Of a DNA stretch of 51,114 nt, positions 3,865 through 45,037 are shown in pieces. Within the stretch, counting starts at the first letter, position 1, and each line of letters starts with the position of its first letter. A program made the translations under genes and the position numbers. Origin of the DNA: an uncultured Clostridia bacterium. Lineage in GTDB: Bacteria; Bacillota; Clostridia; TANB77; CAG-465. The DNA lies in contig CALXBV010000067.1 in NCBI GenBank assembly GCA_944386635.1, positions 1-51,114 of the forward strand. The letters are read 5' to 3'. The notes below the pieces were generated by a model. It saw only the letters and a program-made list of their open reading frames with translations, ran no database searches and was not told where the DNA came from.

Positions 3865-6474
3865 ATGGATAATAATTTTAATTATCAAAAAAGAGAAGAA
3901 GAAATATATAAAAATTGGGAAGAAAAAGGATATTTTAAGTGTGAGATAAGAGAAGGAGAAAAGCCTTTCGTTATATCTATGCCACCACCAAATGTAACAG
4001 CAAAGCTTCATATAGGACATGCACTTGTTAATACAATTCAGGACGTATTTATTAGATATCATAGATTAAAAGGTGAACCTACTTTATGGATTCCTGGAAC
4101 AGATCATGCAAGTATTGCAACAGAAGTTAAAGTTGTTGAAAAACTTAAAAAGGAAGGTAAAACTAAGGCAGAACTTGGTAGAGAAGGATTCTTAAAAGAA
4201 GCTTGGGCTTGGAAGGAAAAATATGGTGGGGAAATTACAAGCCAAATCAGAAAACTTGGATGCTCTTGTGATTGGTCTAGAGAAAGATTTACTATGGATG
4301 AAGGATGTTCTGATGCAGTACTTGAAGTATTTGAAAGACTATATAATAAAGGTTTAATATATAAGGGAAAAAGAATTGTTAACTGGTGTCCTTCTTGTAA
4401 GACTCCAATTTCAGATACAGAAGTTGAGTATGAAGAAGTACCATCATATTTATGGTATATTAAGTATCCAATTGAAAATAGTGATGAATATTTAACAGTT
4501 GCTACAACAAGACCCGAGACAATGCTTGGAGATACAGCAGTAGCTGTTGCACCAGATGATGAAAGATATACAAAATATATAGGAAAAAGAGTATATCTAC
4601 CAATTGTTGGTAAATATATACCTGTTATTGCAGATAGATATGTTGAAAAAGAGTTTGGTACAGGTGTAGTTAAAATCACACCAGCTCATGATCCAAATGA
4701 TTATAAGGTTGGAGAAAGGCATAATCTTGAGATAATAAATATATTAAATGATGATGCTACATTAAATGAGAATGCAGGAAAGTATCAGGGAATGACAACA
4801 ATTGAAGCTAGAGAAAAAATAGTAGAAGACTTAAAGGAGCAAGGATATTTAGTAAAAATTGAACCTTATACTCATAATGTTGGAAGTTGCTATAGATGTC
4901 ATACAACAATTGAGCCATATATTTCAAATCAATGGTTTGTACATATGCCAGAACTTGTAAAGCCGGCAATAGAAGCTGTTAAAAATGGTGAGACAGTATT
5001 TGTACCAAAAAGATTTGAAAAAATGTATTTTAACTGGATGGAAAATATAGAAGATTGGTGTATATCTAGACAACTTTGGTGGGGACATAGAATACCAGCA
5101 TATTATTGTGATAGATGTGATAAAATTACTGTATCAAAAACTCCAGTTACTACATGCGAATGTGGTGGGCATCTAACTCAAGATGAAGATACTTTAGATA
5201 CATGGTTTTCATCTGCTTTATGGCCATTTTCTATACTTGGCTGGCCGAAGAAAACAAAAGATTTAGAATATTTCTATCCAAACTCAATGTTAGTTACTGG
5301 CTATGATATTATAACATTCTGGGTAAGTAAAATGATTTTTTCGGGAATTGAATACACAGGACAAGTACCATTCAAGTATGTATTTATTAATGGTCTTGTA
5401 AGAGATGCTAAGGGAAGAAAAATGTCTAAGTCATTAGGTAATGGTGTTGATCCGTTAGATGTAATTAGAGATTATGGAACTGATGCTCTAAGACTTTCTT
5501 TAATACAAAATATAACACCTGGAAATGATGTAAGATATATACCAGAAAAAGTTGAAGCTTCTAGAAACTTTGTAAATAAGTTATGGAATGCAGCAAAATT
5601 TGCAAATAATTATATTAAGGATCTAGATATAGACAAGCCAGAAATGTTAATGCCTGAGGACAAATGGATACTTACTAAACTATCTAATACAATAAGAGAT
5701 GTTGAGCAGAATATGGATAATTTTGAAATTGGTATAGCAGTCCAAATTATTTATGATTTTATTTGGAATGATATTTGTGATTGGTACATTGAAATGATAA
5801 AGCCAAGACTATATAATAAAGAAAATAAGTCATATAAAACAGCTATATGGACTCTAAATCATACTTTAATAGCTGCAGTTAAAATGCTACATCCATTTAT
5901 GCCTTTTGTGACAGAAGAAGTATATTTAAATTTAAAATCAGATAAGGAATCTATTATGCTAGCTTTATGGCCAAAAGCAGAATATAATTTTGAGCAGGAA
6001 GAAAAAGCTGTAGATACTATAAACAATATGATTAGGCAAATACGTAATGCTAGATCCAATATGAATATTACAGGCTCTAAAAAGACGTCTGCTCAAATAG
6101 TACTTGAAAAAGGTGAGTTTGAAAATATATTTAAAGAGGCAATAGAATATATCAAAAGACTTGCATATATAGATAACATTGAATATATAGATAAAACAGA
6201 AGATGCTAATACTAAGTATGTAGCATTACATGATGAAAAGATAAATGTATTTTTAAATATGTCTGATGCTATAGATTTGGATGCAGAAATTGAAAAATTA
6301 GAAAAAGAAAAACAAACAGCTACATCTGAATTAAAAAGAGCACAAGGAATGTTAAAAAATGAAAACTTTGTAAATAAAGCACCAGAAAAATTAATACAAG
6401 CAGAAAAAGAAAAAGTTCAAAAGTATACGGATTTGCTAGAAAAAATCGAATCAAGACTTAGCGAATTAAAATAG
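3865..6474 (+). CDS. valS: Valine--tRNA ligase
   Basis: PPPNVT, HIGH, WCISRQLWWGH and KMSKS motifs; C-terminal coiled coil; Val T-box upstream. Confidence 0.98.
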   Translation: MDNNFNYQKREEEIYKNWEEKGYFKCEIREGEKPFVISMPPPNVTAKLHIGHALVNTIQDVFIRYHRLKGEPTLWIPGTDHASIATEVKVVEKLKKEGKTKAELGREGFLKEAWAWKEKYGGEITSQIRKLGCSCDWSRERFTMDEGCSDAVLEVFERLYNKGLIYKGKRIVNWCPSCKTPISDTEVEYEEVPSYLWYIKYPIENSDEYLTVATTRPETMLGDTAVAVAPDDERYTKYIGKRVYLPIVGKYIPVIADRYVEKEFGTGVVKITPAHDPNDYKVGERHNLEIINILNDDATLNENAGKYQGMTTIEAREKIVEDLKEQGYLVKIEPYTHNVGSCYRCHTTIEPYISNQWFVHMPELVKPAIEAVKNGETVFVPKRFEKMYFNWMENIEDWCISRQLWWGHRIPAYYCDRCDKITVSKTPVTTCECGGHLTQDEDTLDTWFSSALWPFSILGWPKKTKDLEYFYPNSMLVTGYDIITFWVSKMIFSGIEYTGQVPFKYVFINGLVRDAKGRKMSKSLGNGVDPLDVIRDYGTDALRLSLIQNITPGNDVRYIPEKVEASRNFVNKLWNAAKFANNYIKDLDIDKPEMLMPEDKWILTKLSNTIRDVEQNMDNFEIGIAVQIIYDFIWNDICDWYIEMIKPRLYNKENKSYKTAIWTLNHTLIAAVKMLHPFMPFVTEEVYLNLKSDKESIMLALWPKAEYNFEQEEKAVDTINNMIRQIRNARSNMNITGSKKTSAQIVLEKGEFENIFKEAIEYIKRLAYIDNIEYIDKTEDANTKYVALHDEKINVFLNMSDAIDLDAEIEKLEKEKQTATSELKRAQGMLKNENFVNKAPEKLIQAEKEKVQKYTDLLEKIESRLSELK

Positions 6475-20226: not shown

Positions 20227-20355
20227 TTAATTACAGCAGAAACAGAAAAATAGTAATACTAAAAGTAGTATTAGTATAAAATTACCATTACAAAATAAGT
20301 TACTTATACAATTATTTGAGTTGTTGTTCTGCTCATTACAGCAACAATTATTCAT
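20227..20355 (-). CDS. Unannotated 42-aa Cys/Asn-rich protein with hydrophobic C-terminus (spore-protein-like)
   Basis: MNNCCCNEQNNNSNNCISNLFCNGNFILILLLVLLFFCFCCN; AAGGAG RBS within the end of the peroxiredoxin gene; starts 3 nt after its stop. Confidence 0.7.
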   Translation of the reverse strand: MNNCCCNEQNNNSNNCISNLFCNGNFILILLLVLLFFCFCCN

Positions 20356-20358
20356 ATA

Positions 20359-20892
20359 CTACCATCTCCTTAAATCATCATTTTCTTTGCTAAAGCAAAG
20401 GTACCAGTCCATACAATTTTTTGCATTATTTTTTTTCATATTATTCATTAAATCTATGTAATTATTAGGGGAAGGGATAATAGTAGATAATCCAGGCATC
20501 CAGTTTGCTGGTGTAGCAACATTATCTGAATCAGATATTTGAAGTGCATCTATCATTCTTAATATTTCTGATATATTTCTACCATTTTGAGCTGGATATA
20601 TAAGGATACACCTTACTGTCTGAGACGGGTCTATAAAAAATACATTTCTAACGGTTGATGTATTATTATTAATGTCTGACATCATTCCATACATATTAGC
20701 TATATCTTTATTTGTATCAGAAATTATTGGAAAAGGAATAGAAATACCAGTATTTTCTTCAATATCTTTTATCCAAGCTAAATGTGATGGACAACTATCT
20801 ACAGATAATCCTAATAAACTACAATTTCTTTTTTCAAACTCCTCATTATGCTTAGCAAAAGAGATTAACTCAGTTGTACATACGGGGGTAAA
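20359..20892 (-). CDS. Peroxiredoxin (Prx6/1-Cys type), 3' segment lacking its own start
   Basis: Open from 20892: FTPVCTTELISFAK...GLSVDS..SHLAW...FPIISD...TVRNVFFIDP...YP..NGRN..EILR...TPANW. Confidence 0.93.
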   Translation of the reverse strand, partial: FTPVCTTELISFAKHNEEFEKRNCSLLGLSVDSCPSHLAWIKDIEENTGISIPFPIISDTNKDIANMYGMMSDINNNTSTVRNVFFIDPSQTVRCILIYPAQNGRNISEILRMIDALQISDSDNVATPANWMPGLSTIIPSPNNYIDLMNNMKKNNAKNCMDWYLCFSKENDDLRRW

Positions 20893-20919
20893 TGTTAAGG
20901 ATATAATAGATAAAAGCTA

Positions 20920-21054
20920 TTATTCTTTTTTTATATATTTCAAATATATATCTTTACAAAAAATTGAAAATTGAGTATATACTATATATTTTTTTTGAGT
21001 TGATACATTTTTTGAATGTATTTTTTTTATTATATAATTTTTATTATTAGACAA
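20920..21054 (-). CDS. Unannotated 44-aa basic protein; candidate recombination directionality factor
   Basis: TTG start after AGGTG (21065-21061); MSNNKNYIIKKIHSKNVSTQKKYIVYTQFSIFCKDIYLKYIKKE; CATATATT -10-like box at 21078-21071; function is inference. Confidence 0.5.
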   Translation of the reverse strand: MSNNKNYIIKKIHSKNVSTQKKYIVYTQFSIFCKDIYLKYIKKE

Positions 21055-21194
21055 TATTTTCACCTAATTTAATATATGTCTTTATACTACAATAATTGAC
21101 ATTAATAATTTGTATTTTTTTATTTATAGATATCTAAAAGTTTATTATAATGTATATATTATAATAAAAGTTTTATAATTTGAAAGGAGTATAT

Positions 21195-22706
21195 ATGGTA
21201 GCAATATATGCAAGACAAAGTATAGATAAAAAAGATAGTATTAGTATACAGACACAATTAGAATATGGTAAAAATATTTGTAAAACAGAAGGTTTAATGT
21301 ATAAAGAGTATTATGATAAAGGATTTTCTGGATCTAACTTAAATAGGCCAAAGTTTAAAGAGTTAATATTTGATATAGAAAATGGAATAATTAATAAAGT
21401 TATATGTTATAGATTAGATAGAATAAGTAGAAGTTTAGTTGATTTTTCTAATTTATTAGTTTTTTTTGAAAAGTATAACGTTGAATTTATATCTGCTACA
21501 GAACAATTTGATACATCAACTCCTATTGGAAGAGCTATGATTAATATAATAATGGTTTTTGCTCAATTAGAAAGAGAAACTATACAGCAACGTGTAAGAG
21601 ATAACTATTATGCCAGAGCTAAAAAAGGCTTATTTACCGGAGGAAATATTGCATTTGGATATAAAAATGAAACTATAAAGATGGATGGGAAAAAAAGTCC
21701 AGTGTTCAAGCAAGAAAATGAAGAAATTAAAATAGTAAAATATATATTCAAAGAATATTTGAAAAATAGGACTATACATTCAATAGCTAAAGACTTAACT
21801 AATTTATATAGCAAGTTGTATACGGATAAATTTGTAAAAAGAGTATTAACAAATACAATATATGTAAAGTGCGATACAAAAATATATACATATTATAAAG
21901 AAAAAGGATATATTATGTATAATGATTTAAATGATTTTAACGGAAAATGCGGAGCTGTAATATATGGTAAAGAAAAAGGAAAGAAGAATAGAATAAGAAC
22001 AGAAATTGATGAACAATTATTCGTATTAGTAAAGAATATACCTGTAATTGAATCTAAGAATTTTATAATTGTGCAGGAAAAGATTAATAGTAACAAGAAA
22101 GAAATTACTGCAAAAAAGCGAGGAAAATATAGCTGGCTTACAGGGTTAGTCAAATGTAAGTTATGTAACTCATCAGTTGGAGTAAAAGTTACAAGAGGAT
22201 ACAAATATATGATTTGTTCTAAGCATAGGCTGTATAATGCTTGTGATAATAAAAGAAATTATAAACTTGAAGAGATAGAAGATATTATTTATAAAGAAGT
22301 TGTAGATTATATAAAAGATATAGATGTGAATAATTTAATACAAGACGATGAAAAAAATGCATATAAAAGTAAGGAAAATGAATTATTAATAAAGAAAACA
22401 CAATATCAAGAAAAATTAAATAATCTTATAAGCATTGCATCTAATAATAAAGAAATAGAAGATATACTAAAAGAAAATATTATTAAATTGGGTGAAAGTA
22501 TACAAAAAATAGAAGAAAATATAGAAAATATAAAAATGGATGCTTTAAATAGAGAAATTGATGTTGATATGTATATAAAAGCAATAGATATTATTACTAA
22601 TAGGTTTTCAGAGTTAGATTTGTATGAAAAAAATAGATTAGTAAAGATTTTTGTGAAATGTATATACTTAAATGAAAAAGAAATAGAGATACTTTTTTAT
22701 ATATGA
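21195..22706 (+). CDS. Large serine recombinase (SpoIVCA/CisA-like)
   Basis: AAAGGAG RBS; YARQS catalytic Ser, DKGFSG, RLDRISR, FAQLERE, Zn ribbon CKLC...C...C and coiled coil. Confidence 0.95.
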   Translation: MVAIYARQSIDKKDSISIQTQLEYGKNICKTEGLMYKEYYDKGFSGSNLNRPKFKELIFDIENGIINKVICYRLDRISRSLVDFSNLLVFFEKYNVEFISATEQFDTSTPIGRAMINIIMVFAQLERETIQQRVRDNYYARAKKGLFTGGNIAFGYKNETIKMDGKKSPVFKQENEEIKIVKYIFKEYLKNRTIHSIAKDLTNLYSKLYTDKFVKRVLTNTIYVKCDTKIYTYYKEKGYIMYNDLNDFNGKCGAVIYGKEKGKKNRIRTEIDEQLFVLVKNIPVIESKNFIIVQEKINSNKKEITAKKRGKYSWLTGLVKCKLCNSSVGVKVTRGYKYMICSKHRLYNACDNKRNYKLEEIEDIIYKEVVDYIKDIDVNNLIQDDEKNAYKSKENELLIKKTQYQEKLNNLISIASNNKEIEDILKENIIKLGESIQKIEENIENIKMDALNREIDVDMYIKAIDIITNRFSELDLYEKNRLVKIFVKCIYLNEKEIEILFYI

Positions 22707-22728
22707 TATATCTATCTATATTGGCAGT

Positions 22729-22869
22729 GGTAAAATCACCTGGATGAGAGAAAAATACTAACCATTTTCCCATATAATCTGTAAGTTTTAAAGGTCCAAA
22801 CGTTGAATTCGCTATAAATCTAGGAGCTCTTTGACCTAACATAATCATATTATTTCTTTGTTCTTCCAT
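22729..22869 (-). CDS. Peroxiredoxin 5' segment (codons 1-47)
   Basis: AAGGAGG RBS; MLGQRAPRFIANSTFGPLKLTDYMGKWLVFFSHPGDFT, then runs into element sequence. Confidence 0.93.
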
Positions 22870-22888
22870 TTTTACTCCTCCTTGCTAT

Positions 22889-22915
22889 ATGGTATGAAAA
22901 ATGTGATTATTTGTG
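22889..22915 (-). promoter_or_regulatory. Putative sigmaK-type promoter of the split peroxiredoxin operon
   Basis: CACA (22915-22912), 15 nt, CATACCAT (22896-22889), i.e. AC-N16-CATAnnnT. Confidence 0.6.
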
Positions 22916-23052
22916 ATAGTAAAAGAAAAAAATGTAATAAAATTTAACTAAATATAAAAATAAGAATTATTAATTAAATACATGTAATAGTTATTAATAC
23001 ATTTTTTATATAATTAAAAGTTGCTGAAATTTCTTCAGCAACTTAATTCTTT

Positions 23053-23586
23053 TTATATTATATATTCCCATCCTGGCTTCCATGCTTTAGATTTTCTCCA
23101 ATCATTTTTAATTGCTTCTTCCCAAGATATATTTTTAGTTAAAACTTCAAAAGCTAGTTGTGGTGCTCTATGAGCAACTATTCCAATTGTTTTTCCTTTA
23201 TAATTTCCTTTTAAAAATTGTATAAAGTTTGAAATTCTTTTTTCTACATCTTTTAGAGATTCACCATTTGGAAAAGGTGTATCAATATGTCCTTCATAAA
23301 TTACTTGATTTTTATCTTTACCATCTAAATCACCATAATTACATTCTCTCAATCTTTTATCTTGAATATGTTTAATATTTGGAAAAGCAAGATCAGCAGA
23401 CTCTATTGCTCTTATTAAATCAGATGTAAATATAATATCAAAATGTGTATCTTTTCTTATTTGGCCAAGTTTAATAGCTCTTTCTTTTCCTAGCTCTGTT
23501 AATTCTACTTGTTTCCAGCCACTACATTTTCCTTTAATATTATCAGATGTTGTTCCATGAACGAAATATATAATTTTAGTTTCCAT
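23053..23586 (-). CDS. Histidine phosphatase family protein
   Basis: FVHG (variant of RHG), TSDLIRA, LRECNYG, PNGES, IVAH. Confidence 0.85.
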   Translation of the reverse strand: METKIIYFVHGTTSDNIKGKCSGWKQVELTELGKERAIKLGQIRKDTHFDIIFTSDLIRAIESADLAFPNIKHIQDKRLRECNYGDLDGKDKNQVIYEGHIDTPFPNGESLKDVEKRISNFIQFLKGNYKGKTIGIVAHRAPQLAFEVLTKNISWEEAIKNDWRKSKAWKPGWEYII

Positions 23587-27841: not shown

Positions 27842-29068
27842 TTGAAAAAATATAAAGTAAGTATGCTATTAATTTTTACATTAATTATGCAATTTGTATT
27901 TAGTTTTTGCTATGCAATATCTCCGTCTAGTGATGTTATATACAATGGTATTGATGTGAGTGAATATCAGGGAAATATTAATTTTCAAAGTGTAAAAGAT
28001 GCTGGAATAGATATTGTATATATTAGAAGTAGTGAAGGAACAAATTTTATAGATCCATATTTTAGACAAAACTATAATAATGCAAAAGCAGCAGGACTTA
28101 AGGTAGGTTTTTATCATTATGTTACAGCAAGAAGTACAGAAAGTGCTATTCAAGAGGCAGATTTCTTTGCTTCGGTTATAAATGGTACATCTCCAGATTG
28201 TCTACTCGCTATGGATTTTGAATATTTTGATGGACTAAGTAATAGTGAAGTAAATAGTATTTCAAGAGCCTTTTTAGAAAGACTTGCAGATGTTACTGGC
28301 AAAAGAGTAATGGTATATAGCGATGCATACAATGCAGGAAATGTATTTGATTCTTCTTTATCTTCATATCCTTTATGGATTGCTGAATATGGGGTATCTG
28401 AGCCACAACTTTATAGAAATTGGAGTACTTGGGTGGGATTTCAATATTCAGATACAGGAAGAGTTAGTGGTATTAACGATCAGGTTGACCTAGACAGATT
28501 TACTGATGGAGTTTTGCTAGATAATACTGATGCAATAAACAATACAGGAAATACAGTTGTTCCACAAAATGATAATACAGAAATTACTATAACTGTTCAA
28601 TCAGGTGATACCTTAGCTGCTATTGCAAATAAATATGGTACTACTGTAGATAGTATAGTAAATATTAATAATATACAGAATCCTAATCTAATTTATGTAG
28701 GGCAGATTTTAAGAATACCAACTACTCAAAATGCAGTGCAAAATTCAGAAAATAGTACTATATTTTATACTGTAAAAGCTGGTGACACATTATCTGAAAT
28801 AGCGGACGAATATAATGTCACAGTTGAAAGTATAGCAAGAGAAAATAGTATACGAAATCCTAATGAGATATATGTAGGTCAGGTATTAAAAATTGAAACT
28901 GTTAGATATAATGTACATGCAACTGGAAAGGTTATATATTTAGTAAAACCAGGCGATACATTATCTGAAATAGCACAAACGTATGGCACAACTGTAGATG
29001 AATTAGTTAGAATAAATGATATACAAAATCCAAATCTAATTTATGTTGGAGAAAAAATAAGAATATAG
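27842..29068 (+). CDS. GH25 muramidase with three LysM domains
   Basis: [28 protein letters not shown]; three GDTL..IA...I.NPN.IYVG repeats. Confidence 0.93.
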
Positions 29069-44347: not shown

Positions 44348-45037
44348 ATGTTTTTTTCTTTTATATTAGAATTAATATCTAAATTTTTTGGATTATTTGG
44401 ATATATATCTAATGATAAACTTTATCCAGAGCCTTTAAGTAAGACGGAAGAAGAATATTATTTAAGAAGATATTTTAATGGAGATAAAGAGGCAAGAGAT
44501 AAGCTAATAGAACATAACTTAAGACTAGTAGTACATATAGCTAAAAAATATACTAACAATGAGCAAGAATTAGAAGACTTTACTTCAATAGGAACAATAG
44601 GATTAATAAAAGCCATAGATAGTTTTAAAGATAATAAAGGATTTAAAATAAGTACATATGCATCAAGATGCATAGAAAATGAGATATTAATGTATATTAG
44701 AACTTCTAAAAAACAAAAAGCAGAGATATCAATGAATCAAGTTATAGGCACAGATAAAGATGGAAATGATATGGAGCTTATAGATACATTGGTTTTAAAA
44801 GAAAAAGATGCAGTTGACGATATACATGATAAGACTGTATTAAAGCAAGTTTTAGATTTTATAGAAAAAAAACTTAATAAACGAGAAAAATATATTATGA
44901 ATAAAAGATATGGATTAGATGGCGGGAATTGTATGACTCAACAAGAATTAGCAGATGAACTTGGTATATCACGTTCATATGTATCACGAATTGAGACTAA
45001 AGTGCAAAGACTTTTAAAAAAGAATATAAAGAAGTAA
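44348..45037 (+). CDS. sigK: Sporulation sigma factor pro-sigmaK, uninterrupted
   Basis: Hydrophobic pro-sequence ending GYIS, LIEHNLRLVVHIAKKY, IGTIGLIKAI, CIENEILM, IGTDKDGN, ISRSYVSRIE; sigmaE-like CATAAATA at 44321. Confidence 0.9.
   Translation: MFFSFILELISKFFGLFGYISNDKLYPEPLSKTEEEYYLRRYFNGDKEARDKLIEHNLRLVVHIAKKYTNNEQELEDFTSIGTIGLIKAIDSFKDNKGFKISTYASRCIENEILMYIRTSKKQKAEISMNQVIGTDKDGNDMELIDTLVLKEKDAVDDIHDKTVLKQVLDFIEKKLNKREKYIMNKRYGLDGGNCMTQQELADELGISRSYVSRIETKVQRLLKKNIKK

Follow-up and report, generated by a model that had tools for sequence, protein, structure and literature searches.

Why should a peroxiredoxin gene be cut in two, within the codons of its active site, by an insert that holds hardly more than a recombinase gene? 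The question is raised by a 51,114-nucleotide contig of an uncultured Clostridia bacterium (CALXBV010000067.1 of assembly GCA_944386635.1; the whole stretch is called the window here, and the genome bin carrying it G000). The interrupted gene, prx, lies on the minus strand. Its 5' segment (22729..22869) reads 47 codons from the start at 22869 to ...SHPGDFT, and its 3' segment (20359..20892) begins FTPVCTTE... and comprises 177 codons plus a stop (20359-20361). Each junction bears one copy of the minus-strand core TTTACC, at 22729-22734 on the gene-5' side and at 20887-20892 on the gene-3' side, and beyond ...PGDFT the 5' frame enters unrelated element sequence. The intervening element (20893..22734, no strand assigned) measures 1,842 bp counting one core copy and has a GC content of 22% vs 27% for the window. 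When the 1,842 bp between the cores were deleted by a script, a prx open reading frame (ORF) of 222 codons with no internal stop was obtained. Both the peroxidatic Cys (PVCTTE motif) and the 1-cysPrx_C domain are on the 3' segment, the half without a promoter. We propose, with a probability of roughly 55%, that the insert is a skin-like developmental element that is excised in the mother cell and thereby rebuilds a sigmaK-driven peroxiredoxin operon. An earlier reading of this DNA, made from its letters alone (the sequence-only reading), had given the same cores, coordinates, deletion and stop-free ORF of 222 aa, all of which our script reproduced, and had assigned the peroxidatic Cys to the promoter-less half, as was confirmed. 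Its description of the contents, an intact large serine recombinase (LSR) and one tiny ORF with no phage or conjugation genes, was upheld by domain scans and an ORF listing, and its two predicted junction strings (attB and attP) follow correctly from the sequence. The comparison of orthologous loci for empty sites that it had proposed turned up an uninterrupted, collinear ortholog in the sister genome G008 and eight more intact genes in the genus.

The two parts of prx cover consecutive positions of one NCBIfam model, PRK13189 (peroxiredoxin; 4-49 and 48-223 of 224), and the split is therefore not a chance arrangement; the Pfam family AhpC-TSA is divided in the same way (positions 2-38 and 37-122). 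Alone, the 3' segment reaches 220 bits against a PRK13189 cut-off of 211, and its 1-cysPrx_C match has an E of 5e-8. Judged from these family-model matches, the interrupted gene encodes a 1-Cys (Prx6-type) peroxiredoxin. The rebuilt protein aligns end to end (1-222) with the product of the uninterrupted G008 gene at 89% identity, and is 68-73% identical to those of eight further intact genes of the genus; a search with the 3' half found the gene in 26 of 41 related genomes. An insert in a coding sequence, a short direct repeat and an ORF restored by exact removal are all present, as in the skin-like class of elements. A second minus-strand gene (20227..20355), with its start 4 nt past the prx stop, encodes a Cys-rich membrane peptide of 42 aa with a hydrophobic core. 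The peptide matches no Pfam, NCBIfam or PHROG family, and a similar ORF is found downstream of prx in 15 of 19 orthologous loci. Its gene is probably co-transcribed with prx and hence also silenced by the split; with only 4 nt between the two, the element would therefore gate a two-gene operon. The peptide may be a candidate spore-surface partner of the peroxiredoxin.

The recombinase gene (21195..22706, plus strand, 503 aa, ribosome-binding site (RBS) at about 21182) is antisense to prx and ends with a stop codon 22 nt away from the core of the prx-5' junction. Its frame is intact and contains the Pfam domains Resolvase, Recombinase and Zn_ribbon_recom. The protein belongs to the integrase family phrog_95 (PHROGs, E 2e-92); it retains the catalytic R7/S9 and the YRLDRxSR block, and the catalytic Ser/Arg columns are invariant. 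Its best NCBIfam match is XisF, far under the cut-off (128 vs 375 bits). A three-domain architecture with a coiled coil, together with an inverted-repeat attP around a core shared with attB, corresponds to a phage-type large serine integrase; as reconstructed, the attP sites have CTAT...ATAG arms that form an imperfect inverted repeat around a TTTAC core. The 330 bp of the element beyond the LSR gene are too small for a phage structural or conjugation gene. When genes of a functional prophage were looked for among the ORFs of the element, only short AT-rich frames were found besides the LSR and a 44-aa ORF, an Rfam scan of the element gave no match, and a repeat search gave AT-rich noise only. 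The sole other LSR match in G000 is 28% identical, so that the element is present as a single copy in a bin that is 77% complete, in which a second copy could be missed. The element is a real, stripped-down recombination unit consisting of an LSR, a candidate recombination directionality factor (RDF) and att sites.

The candidate RDF is encoded by the 44-aa ORF (20920..21054, minus strand), which is divergent from the LSR gene, starts with TTG at 21054 behind an RBS AGGTGA (21060-21065) and stops 27 nt from the core. Homologs of 43-46 aa with 28-41% identity are present in two genomes of the genus, G019 and G021, and in L038, a Clostridia metagenome-assembled genome (MAG) of the same family and another genus. 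The AGGTGA-spacer-start layout and the orientation divergent from the LSR gene are the same in every case, at distances from the LSR of 3.2 kb in G021 (among early genes), 3.4 kb in G019 and 1.06 kb in L038. With homologs beside related LSRs, the tiny ORF is, by sequence comparison, a real gene; neither it nor its homologs match a Pfam or PHROG family. Complexes of the 44-aa protein with LSR residues 296-503 were predicted in three runs, using custom alignments for both chains. The score was 0.78 in each of the three runs vs 0.29 for the best of three controls; in calibration, 58 of 80 solved complexes scored at least 0.78, as did 2 of 110 mismatched pairs, a comparison that is only roughly valid with custom alignments. 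The runs share at least 96% of their contacts, the partner has a pLDDT of 77, and the predicted interface consists of LSR residues 360-381 and 459-503, at the junction of the zinc ribbon (DBD2) and the coiled coil. In the accessible part of PMC12286644, all known and predicted RDFs are described as docking at this zinc-ribbon/coiled-coil junction despite unrelated folds. The model supports binding of the small protein to the LSR at the RDF docking site, and makes it a candidate RDF of a family without an earlier name.

Upstream of prx, a promoter of sigmaK type is recognizable on the minus strand (22888..22918), with a -35 tATCAC at 22913-22918, a 16-nt spacer and a -10 CATACCATA at 22888-22896, followed by the RBS AAGGAGGAG (22875-22883), whose AAGGAGG comes 4 nt after the -10. 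At least 12 of 17 orthologous prx upstream regions share this tCAC-N16-CATAnnATA-RBS layout amid otherwise variable sequence. A terminator-like hairpin (23018..23044, both strands, stem of 11-12 pairs, T run on both strands) separates the promoter from an upstream histidine-phosphatase gene (His_Phos_1, 23056-23586). The sigmaK consensus of B. subtilis is AC-16/17-CATAnnnTA. For C. difficile, the sigmaK boxes are given as AC at -35 and CATATAAT at -10 (PMC3789822, in part). In a scan of the bin, AC-N16-17-CATAnnnTA with an RBS and a start codon behind it was found ahead of 14 ORFs: prx, DpaB, YabG, two collagen-like proteins, Amidase_2, a GH25/LysM lysozyme, aspartokinase, signal peptidase I, a patatin-like phospholipase, an ArsR-type regulator, a GNAT/ASCH protein and two small ORFs (one without a family match, one not scanned). 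Each of 47 permuted control motifs gave 0-6 matches, except a variant overlapping the real motif, for which 11 were counted. The excerpted text of PMC3789822 counts cotE (peroxiredoxin/chitinase), bclA1-3, dpaAB and a yabG-like gene among the sigmaK targets of C. difficile, the collagen-like bclA genes being sigmaK-controlled exosporium genes. From its promoter sequence, prx is a probable late mother-cell gene. The stretch was located in 6 public runs from 3 studies, as assembled contigs of chicken-gut metagenomes, and four of the runs were examined; no RNA run containing the stretch was among the 6. Of five genomes examined, all have matches to Spo0A and SpoVAC/SpoVAEB over the family cut-offs, and four have one to SpoIVA. 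G000 is positive for each, and also has DpaB, a partial YabG and two whole sigE/sigK-type genes. Going by the gene content of a MAG, the host is very probably an endospore former.

In the mechanism that we propose, a phage-derived recombination unit has been cut down to an LSR, a 44-aa RDF and two att arms, seated in the active-site codons of prx, and the operon of prx and the Cys-rich peptide would be under a late mother-cell promoter of sigmaK type. The operon would remain split and silent during vegetative growth and in the forespore. Production of the small protein in the mother cell during sporulation would turn the LSR to attL x attR recombination, the element would depart as a 1.84-kb circle, and the rebuilt operon would be transcribed to give a spore-surface peroxiredoxin. 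The element would stay in the germ line because the mother cell dies. We infer excision itself, the small protein as its trigger, confinement to the mother cell and the presence of the peroxiredoxin in the spore. The retention of the element may simply reflect selection on the host against losing excision.

The same prx codons are occupied in other species. Close relatives of the G000 LSR were found in 3 of 50 genus genomes (G000, G019 and G021), inside prx in each of them, and are 58% (G019) and 55% (G021) identical to it. An autonomous TnpX-/IS607-like transposon was also considered and was rejected on this distribution, with one copy in the 77%-complete bin G000 and close relatives at prx only. 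In G021 the prx halves are about 40 kb apart on one contig, and the insert carries genes for a terminase, portal, major head, tape measure and tail proteins, an endolysin and a CI-like repressor; by gene content it is a complete-looking prophage of siphovirus type. Two more distant genomes, G227 (an order-level relative; LSR 39% identical by alignment, 45% by search) and L040 (a Eubacteriaceae MAG; LSR 40% identical), also have an interrupted prx: the break falls at residues ~43-47, both halves are there, and the LSR abuts one of them. The G227 element resembles an IMG/VR viral contig. Since four other species have these codons interrupted by homologous LSRs, one of which belongs to a ~40-kb prophage, the prx motif is a recurrent phage attB, and from these comparisons the peroxiredoxin active-site codons are the attB of at least two phage lineages. 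Ordinary prophages use the site in relatives, and the G000 element is therefore regarded as a phage-derived remnant. The LSR genes of G000 and G227 are antisense to prx and abut its 5' half, whereas those of G019, G021 and L040 are co-directional and abut the 3' half. The module of LSR and small ORF in G000, and likewise that of G227, is thus inverted relative to prx when compared with G019 and G021. Because attP is near-palindromic, a flip of the site and a flip of the gene module could not be told apart (attP orientation alignment scores of 11 vs 9, 13 vs 9 and 12 vs 13).

Wider searches were made in metagenome collections. A single-protein LSR query found no close relatives in JGI metagenome contigs; with a three-sequence alignment as query, 80 JGI loci of 32-46% identity and 30 IMG/VR loci were kept. 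No prx fragment was present near the LSR in any of these 110 loci, and none of 190 LSR loci (L036-L225) adjoins a sigE/K-like, DpaB or YabG fragment. On one IMG/VR viral contig (L219, 4965-6578), three separate frames make up the LSR that most resembles the one of G227; sequencing error or decay could be the cause. In L040 (1-6000), C-5 cytosine methyltransferase-like and ImmA-like genes stand beside the LSR, and no obvious phage genes were recognized by eye from the translations of a locus that is masked in part. In run X4 (chicken gut), three contigs match 22729-22779 with 5-7 differences and then pass into unrelated sequence exactly at the breakpoint. From these contigs, other inserts may use the same prx site in other strains.

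A second minimal element was found in L038 (4769-7534), where a 2,762-bp insert bounded by TACA encodes a homolog of the 44-aa protein together with an LSR that shares 50% identity with that of G000, and splits a collagen-repeat (BclA-like) gene. Its in-silico removal yields a protein of 246 aa with 58 unbroken G-X-Y triplets spanning the joint. A CATATAAT box lies upstream of the collagen-like gene and a GT2/TPR glycosyltransferase gene downstream of it. The stop of the small ORF is 27 nt from the core in both mini-elements, and the distance from the LSR stop to the core is 22 or 24 nt in the mini-elements and about 50 nt in the G019 element. The LSRs of G000 and L038 are each nearer to the G019 LSR than to each other, and because they are not mutual closest relatives, the minimal layout was reached twice independently. 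Random decay can hardly account for such a double arrival, which would be expected of selection that acts on precisely the LSR, the small ORF and the att arms. We tentatively propose, at somewhat less than even odds, that these ultra-compact two-gene cassettes (LSR plus a 43-46-aa RDF, 1.8-2.8 kb) were stripped from temperate phages independently and kept by their hosts as mother-cell switches for late spore-surface genes that depend on sigmaK in small-genome gut Clostridia; with two targets so far, the prx operon and the BclA-like gene of L038, they would be the smallest programmed elements of endospore formers and would bring a new RDF family. No remnants of lysogeny genes were found in the 1-kb spacer that separates the LSR gene of L038 from its small ORF. 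The same spacer holds, at ~5600-5700, a very hydrophobic ORF of 31 aa behind a strong RBS, which might encode a type I toxin-like peptide or be nothing.

The coding sequence of prx was then compared with its orthologs. Against G008, the ratio of nonsynonymous to synonymous change (dN/dS) is 0.088 overall, 0.20 in the 47-codon 5' part and 0.07 in the 3' part. At columns invariant in the nine closest orthologs, G000 prx has 2 departures, both conservative, and the nine comparison orthologs have 0-7 each (one of them, L008, is truncated). Both halves are without sign of decay, a result that bounds any relaxed selection and cannot date it.

Several observations weigh against programmed excision in the mother cell. 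The promoter class of prx was assigned from its letters, and inspection of the region upstream of the recombinase gene revealed no sigmaE/K-like box; sigma-70-like matches there number 25 vs 28.8 expected from shuffles. Ahead of the small ORF, inspection showed a CATATATTA box (21070-21078, minus strand) that lacks AC at -35 and has a comparable counterpart in G021 only, not in G019 or L038; as a promoter element it is only suggestive. The small ORF of G000, besides its TTG start, is basic where its homologs are acidic, and both features could be decay. The dN/dS values cannot separate the time before from the time after insertion. In relatives, prx is damaged without any insert, by a frameshift in G024 (L025 4361-4973) and by a truncation of 8 aa in G011 (L008), and because these copies are damaged without an element, the gene is not indispensable in the genus. 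Finally, the excised form of the strain is absent from the contigs of runs X1 and X2 (one study), which contain the integrated form only; this absence is not counted against excision either, because contigs drop rare variants. One X1 contig that skips exactly 1,842 bp (20887->22730) was considered as the excised form and rejected, as it has 71/459 and 18/161 differences (~15%) and represents the intact gene of a co-resident relative.

Much of this could also be understood if the element were an inert remnant, that is, a prophage in prx deleted down to its integrase corner that no longer excises and has knocked out the gene, with its ORFs intact because the event is recent. The ordinary prophages at the same site in relatives, the lack of an excised-form junction for the strain in the contigs, the damaged prx copies of G024 and G011, the start and charge of the small ORF, and the restriction to a single strain, in which selection after insertion is not measurable, all speak for this explanation. 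We nevertheless consider it unlikely. Starting from a G021-like prophage, two deletions would be required, one of ~3 kb between the LSR gene and the small ORF and one of ~36 kb beyond the small ORF, and both would have to end within ~25 nt of the parts needed for excision, an end-state that L038 reached independently. In addition, frames of 503 and 44 codons are still open in DNA of 22-27% GC, the structure prediction still places the small protein on the LSR, and prx shows no excess of change.

An alternative to which we give still less credence is that the element is competent for excision and not developmental, being excised occasionally or under stress (oxidative, SOS) in vegetative cells, either as a switch, one-way or reversible, or as a still-mobile mini-element, with no relation to the mother cell. 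Some LSRs, those of the TnpX and Ccr types, both excise and integrate. For CcrAB, both activities are described in PMC5595907 (in part). The target is an oxidative-stress enzyme, the recombinase gene is preceded by an ordinary AT-rich region whose sigma-70-like matches are no commoner than in shuffles, and prophages with LSRs of this family clearly move from one species to another. However, excision in vegetative cells would leave a 1.8-kb circle that has no replication functions and would disappear, whereas the contigs of two samples show the element as fixed. It is a single copy in the 77%-complete genome, where the other LSR is only 28% identical, the prx promoter is of sigmaK type and not of a vegetative stress type, and the targets of both mini-elements resemble spore-surface genes. 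That the split is an assembly artefact, a chimeric MAG contig with the gene whole in every cell, is barely credible even for a metagenome bin of 105 contigs (1.46 Mb, 77% complete), because both junctions are spanned by contigs of the public run X1 that match the window without a difference (20337-21410 and 22413-22890), four genomes of other projects show the same split with related LSRs, and the junctions have a shared core and inverted-repeat arms.

Programmed excision in the mother cell, our preferred reading, has several precedents. The targets of intervening elements described in the literature searched, which includes PMC5595907 and PMC4191935 (both in part), are sigK, spoVFB, spoVR, spsM, gerE, yabG and spoVK. 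By its sequence features the G000 element belongs with skin, SPbeta and gin, and differs from them in its target and in its reduction to a bare unit. As in skin (SpoIVCA in B. subtilis; CD1231 with the RDF CD1234 in C. difficile), an LSR insert lies in a gene of an endospore former, and exact removal, here in silico, rebuilds the ORF. The skin elements measure 48 kb and ~15 kb, whereas that of G000 has 1.84 kb and two genes and is known here from sequence alone. The skin target is a sigma factor gene and the target here is a peroxiredoxin operon, the sigE/sigK-type genes of G000 being uninterrupted. In C. difficile skin, the recombinase is constitutive and a small RDF confers cell-type specificity (PMC5025042, PMC5595907, both in part). 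For SPbeta in spsM (SprA and SprB), including the defective SPbeta of B. amyloliquefaciens, LSR and small RDF are described as the retained unit (PMC4191935, PMC5499854, both in part). The G000 locus shares with this case the use of one site by a full temperate phage and a reduced derivative, as well as, probably, a late target, in the spore envelope in the case of spsM; it differs in that reduction has gone much further, to the recombination unit only, the recombinases are only distantly related, and the candidate RDF is without sequence similarity to any named family in Pfam or PHROGs. The gin element in gerE of B. cereus (GirC and GirX) is described in part of PMC5595907 as a non-prophage element of 28.6 kb with three recombinase genes and other cargo, whose excision needs the LSR and a small extra factor and whose 9-bp shared core lies inside inverted repeats. 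The G000 element resembles it in the pairing of an LSR with a small, here candidate, factor and in the short shared core within inverted repeats, and is ~15 times smaller with one recombinase. Recombinase-only elements of ~1 kb are known in heterocyst-forming cyanobacteria (PMC4874684, in part). The heterocyst elements (nifD, fdxN, hupL) are alike in the proposed developmental excision in a terminally differentiated cell, and XisF is the best NCBIfam match of the G000 LSR, below the cut-off; they are unlike in phylum, cell type and targets.

The sequence-only reading had pointed to the peroxiredoxin domain of the C. difficile coat protein CotE, in agreement with the available text of PMC3789822, which describes a 1-Cys peroxiredoxin fused to a chitinase, controlled by sigmaK and present in the spore coat. 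By analogy, prx would encode a spore protein as well; unlike CotE, it is a stand-alone protein of 222 aa without a chitinase domain. That reading knew of no peroxiredoxin among described targets, and none was found in the spore-former rearrangement papers searched, although supplementary LSR/att lists could contain such an attB. No report linking collagen-like or exosporium genes to gene-intervening elements was found in the literature searched either, nor were minimal elements of the heterocyst kind found in the searched literature on spore formers. The locus looks like a new target, and the smallest size yet, among spore-former intervening elements. The idea of a domesticated, developmental rearrangement has gained from the sporulation genes, the sigmaK-type promoter, the candidate RDF and the L038 element, while the word domesticated has to be qualified, as ordinary prophages use the same site. 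If excision takes place, the domestication of sporulation elements from phage to host can reach a bare recombination unit, and such units could be recognized from a split gene, an LSR and a tiny divergent ORF. To the regulators and the envelope or cortex enzymes now on record as targets, an antioxidant enzyme of the spore and a surface protein of collagen-like type would be added, which would point to the whole sigmaK regulon as a place where temperate phages can lodge safely in gut Clostridia. It would further follow that such split genes in MAGs should not be annotated as pseudogenes. The compact LSR/RDF/att set (~1.8 kb, with attL, attR, attB and attP defined) and its unnamed RDF family would be potentially useful as an orthogonal, reversible recombination tool.

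Elsewhere in the window, a gene for a GH25 lysozyme with three LysM repeats (27842-29065, plus strand) carries the same sigmaK-type motif, and a whole sigE/sigK-type sigma factor gene is located at 44366-45019 (plus strand). A skin element in sigK of G000 was ruled out, both sigE/K-type genes being whole. In another genome, G168, a half sigE/K-type gene (L242, C6 2819-3506) proved to consist of overlapping ORFs of 129 and 101 aa, which is a frameshift and not an insertion. On contig C57 of G000 (5194-5352), yabG with its sigmaK-type promoter leaves the end of the 5.3-kb contig after 53 codons. In C. botulinum, yabG is a target of an intervening element (PMC10747680, in part), and the contig break in G000 could hide another insert.

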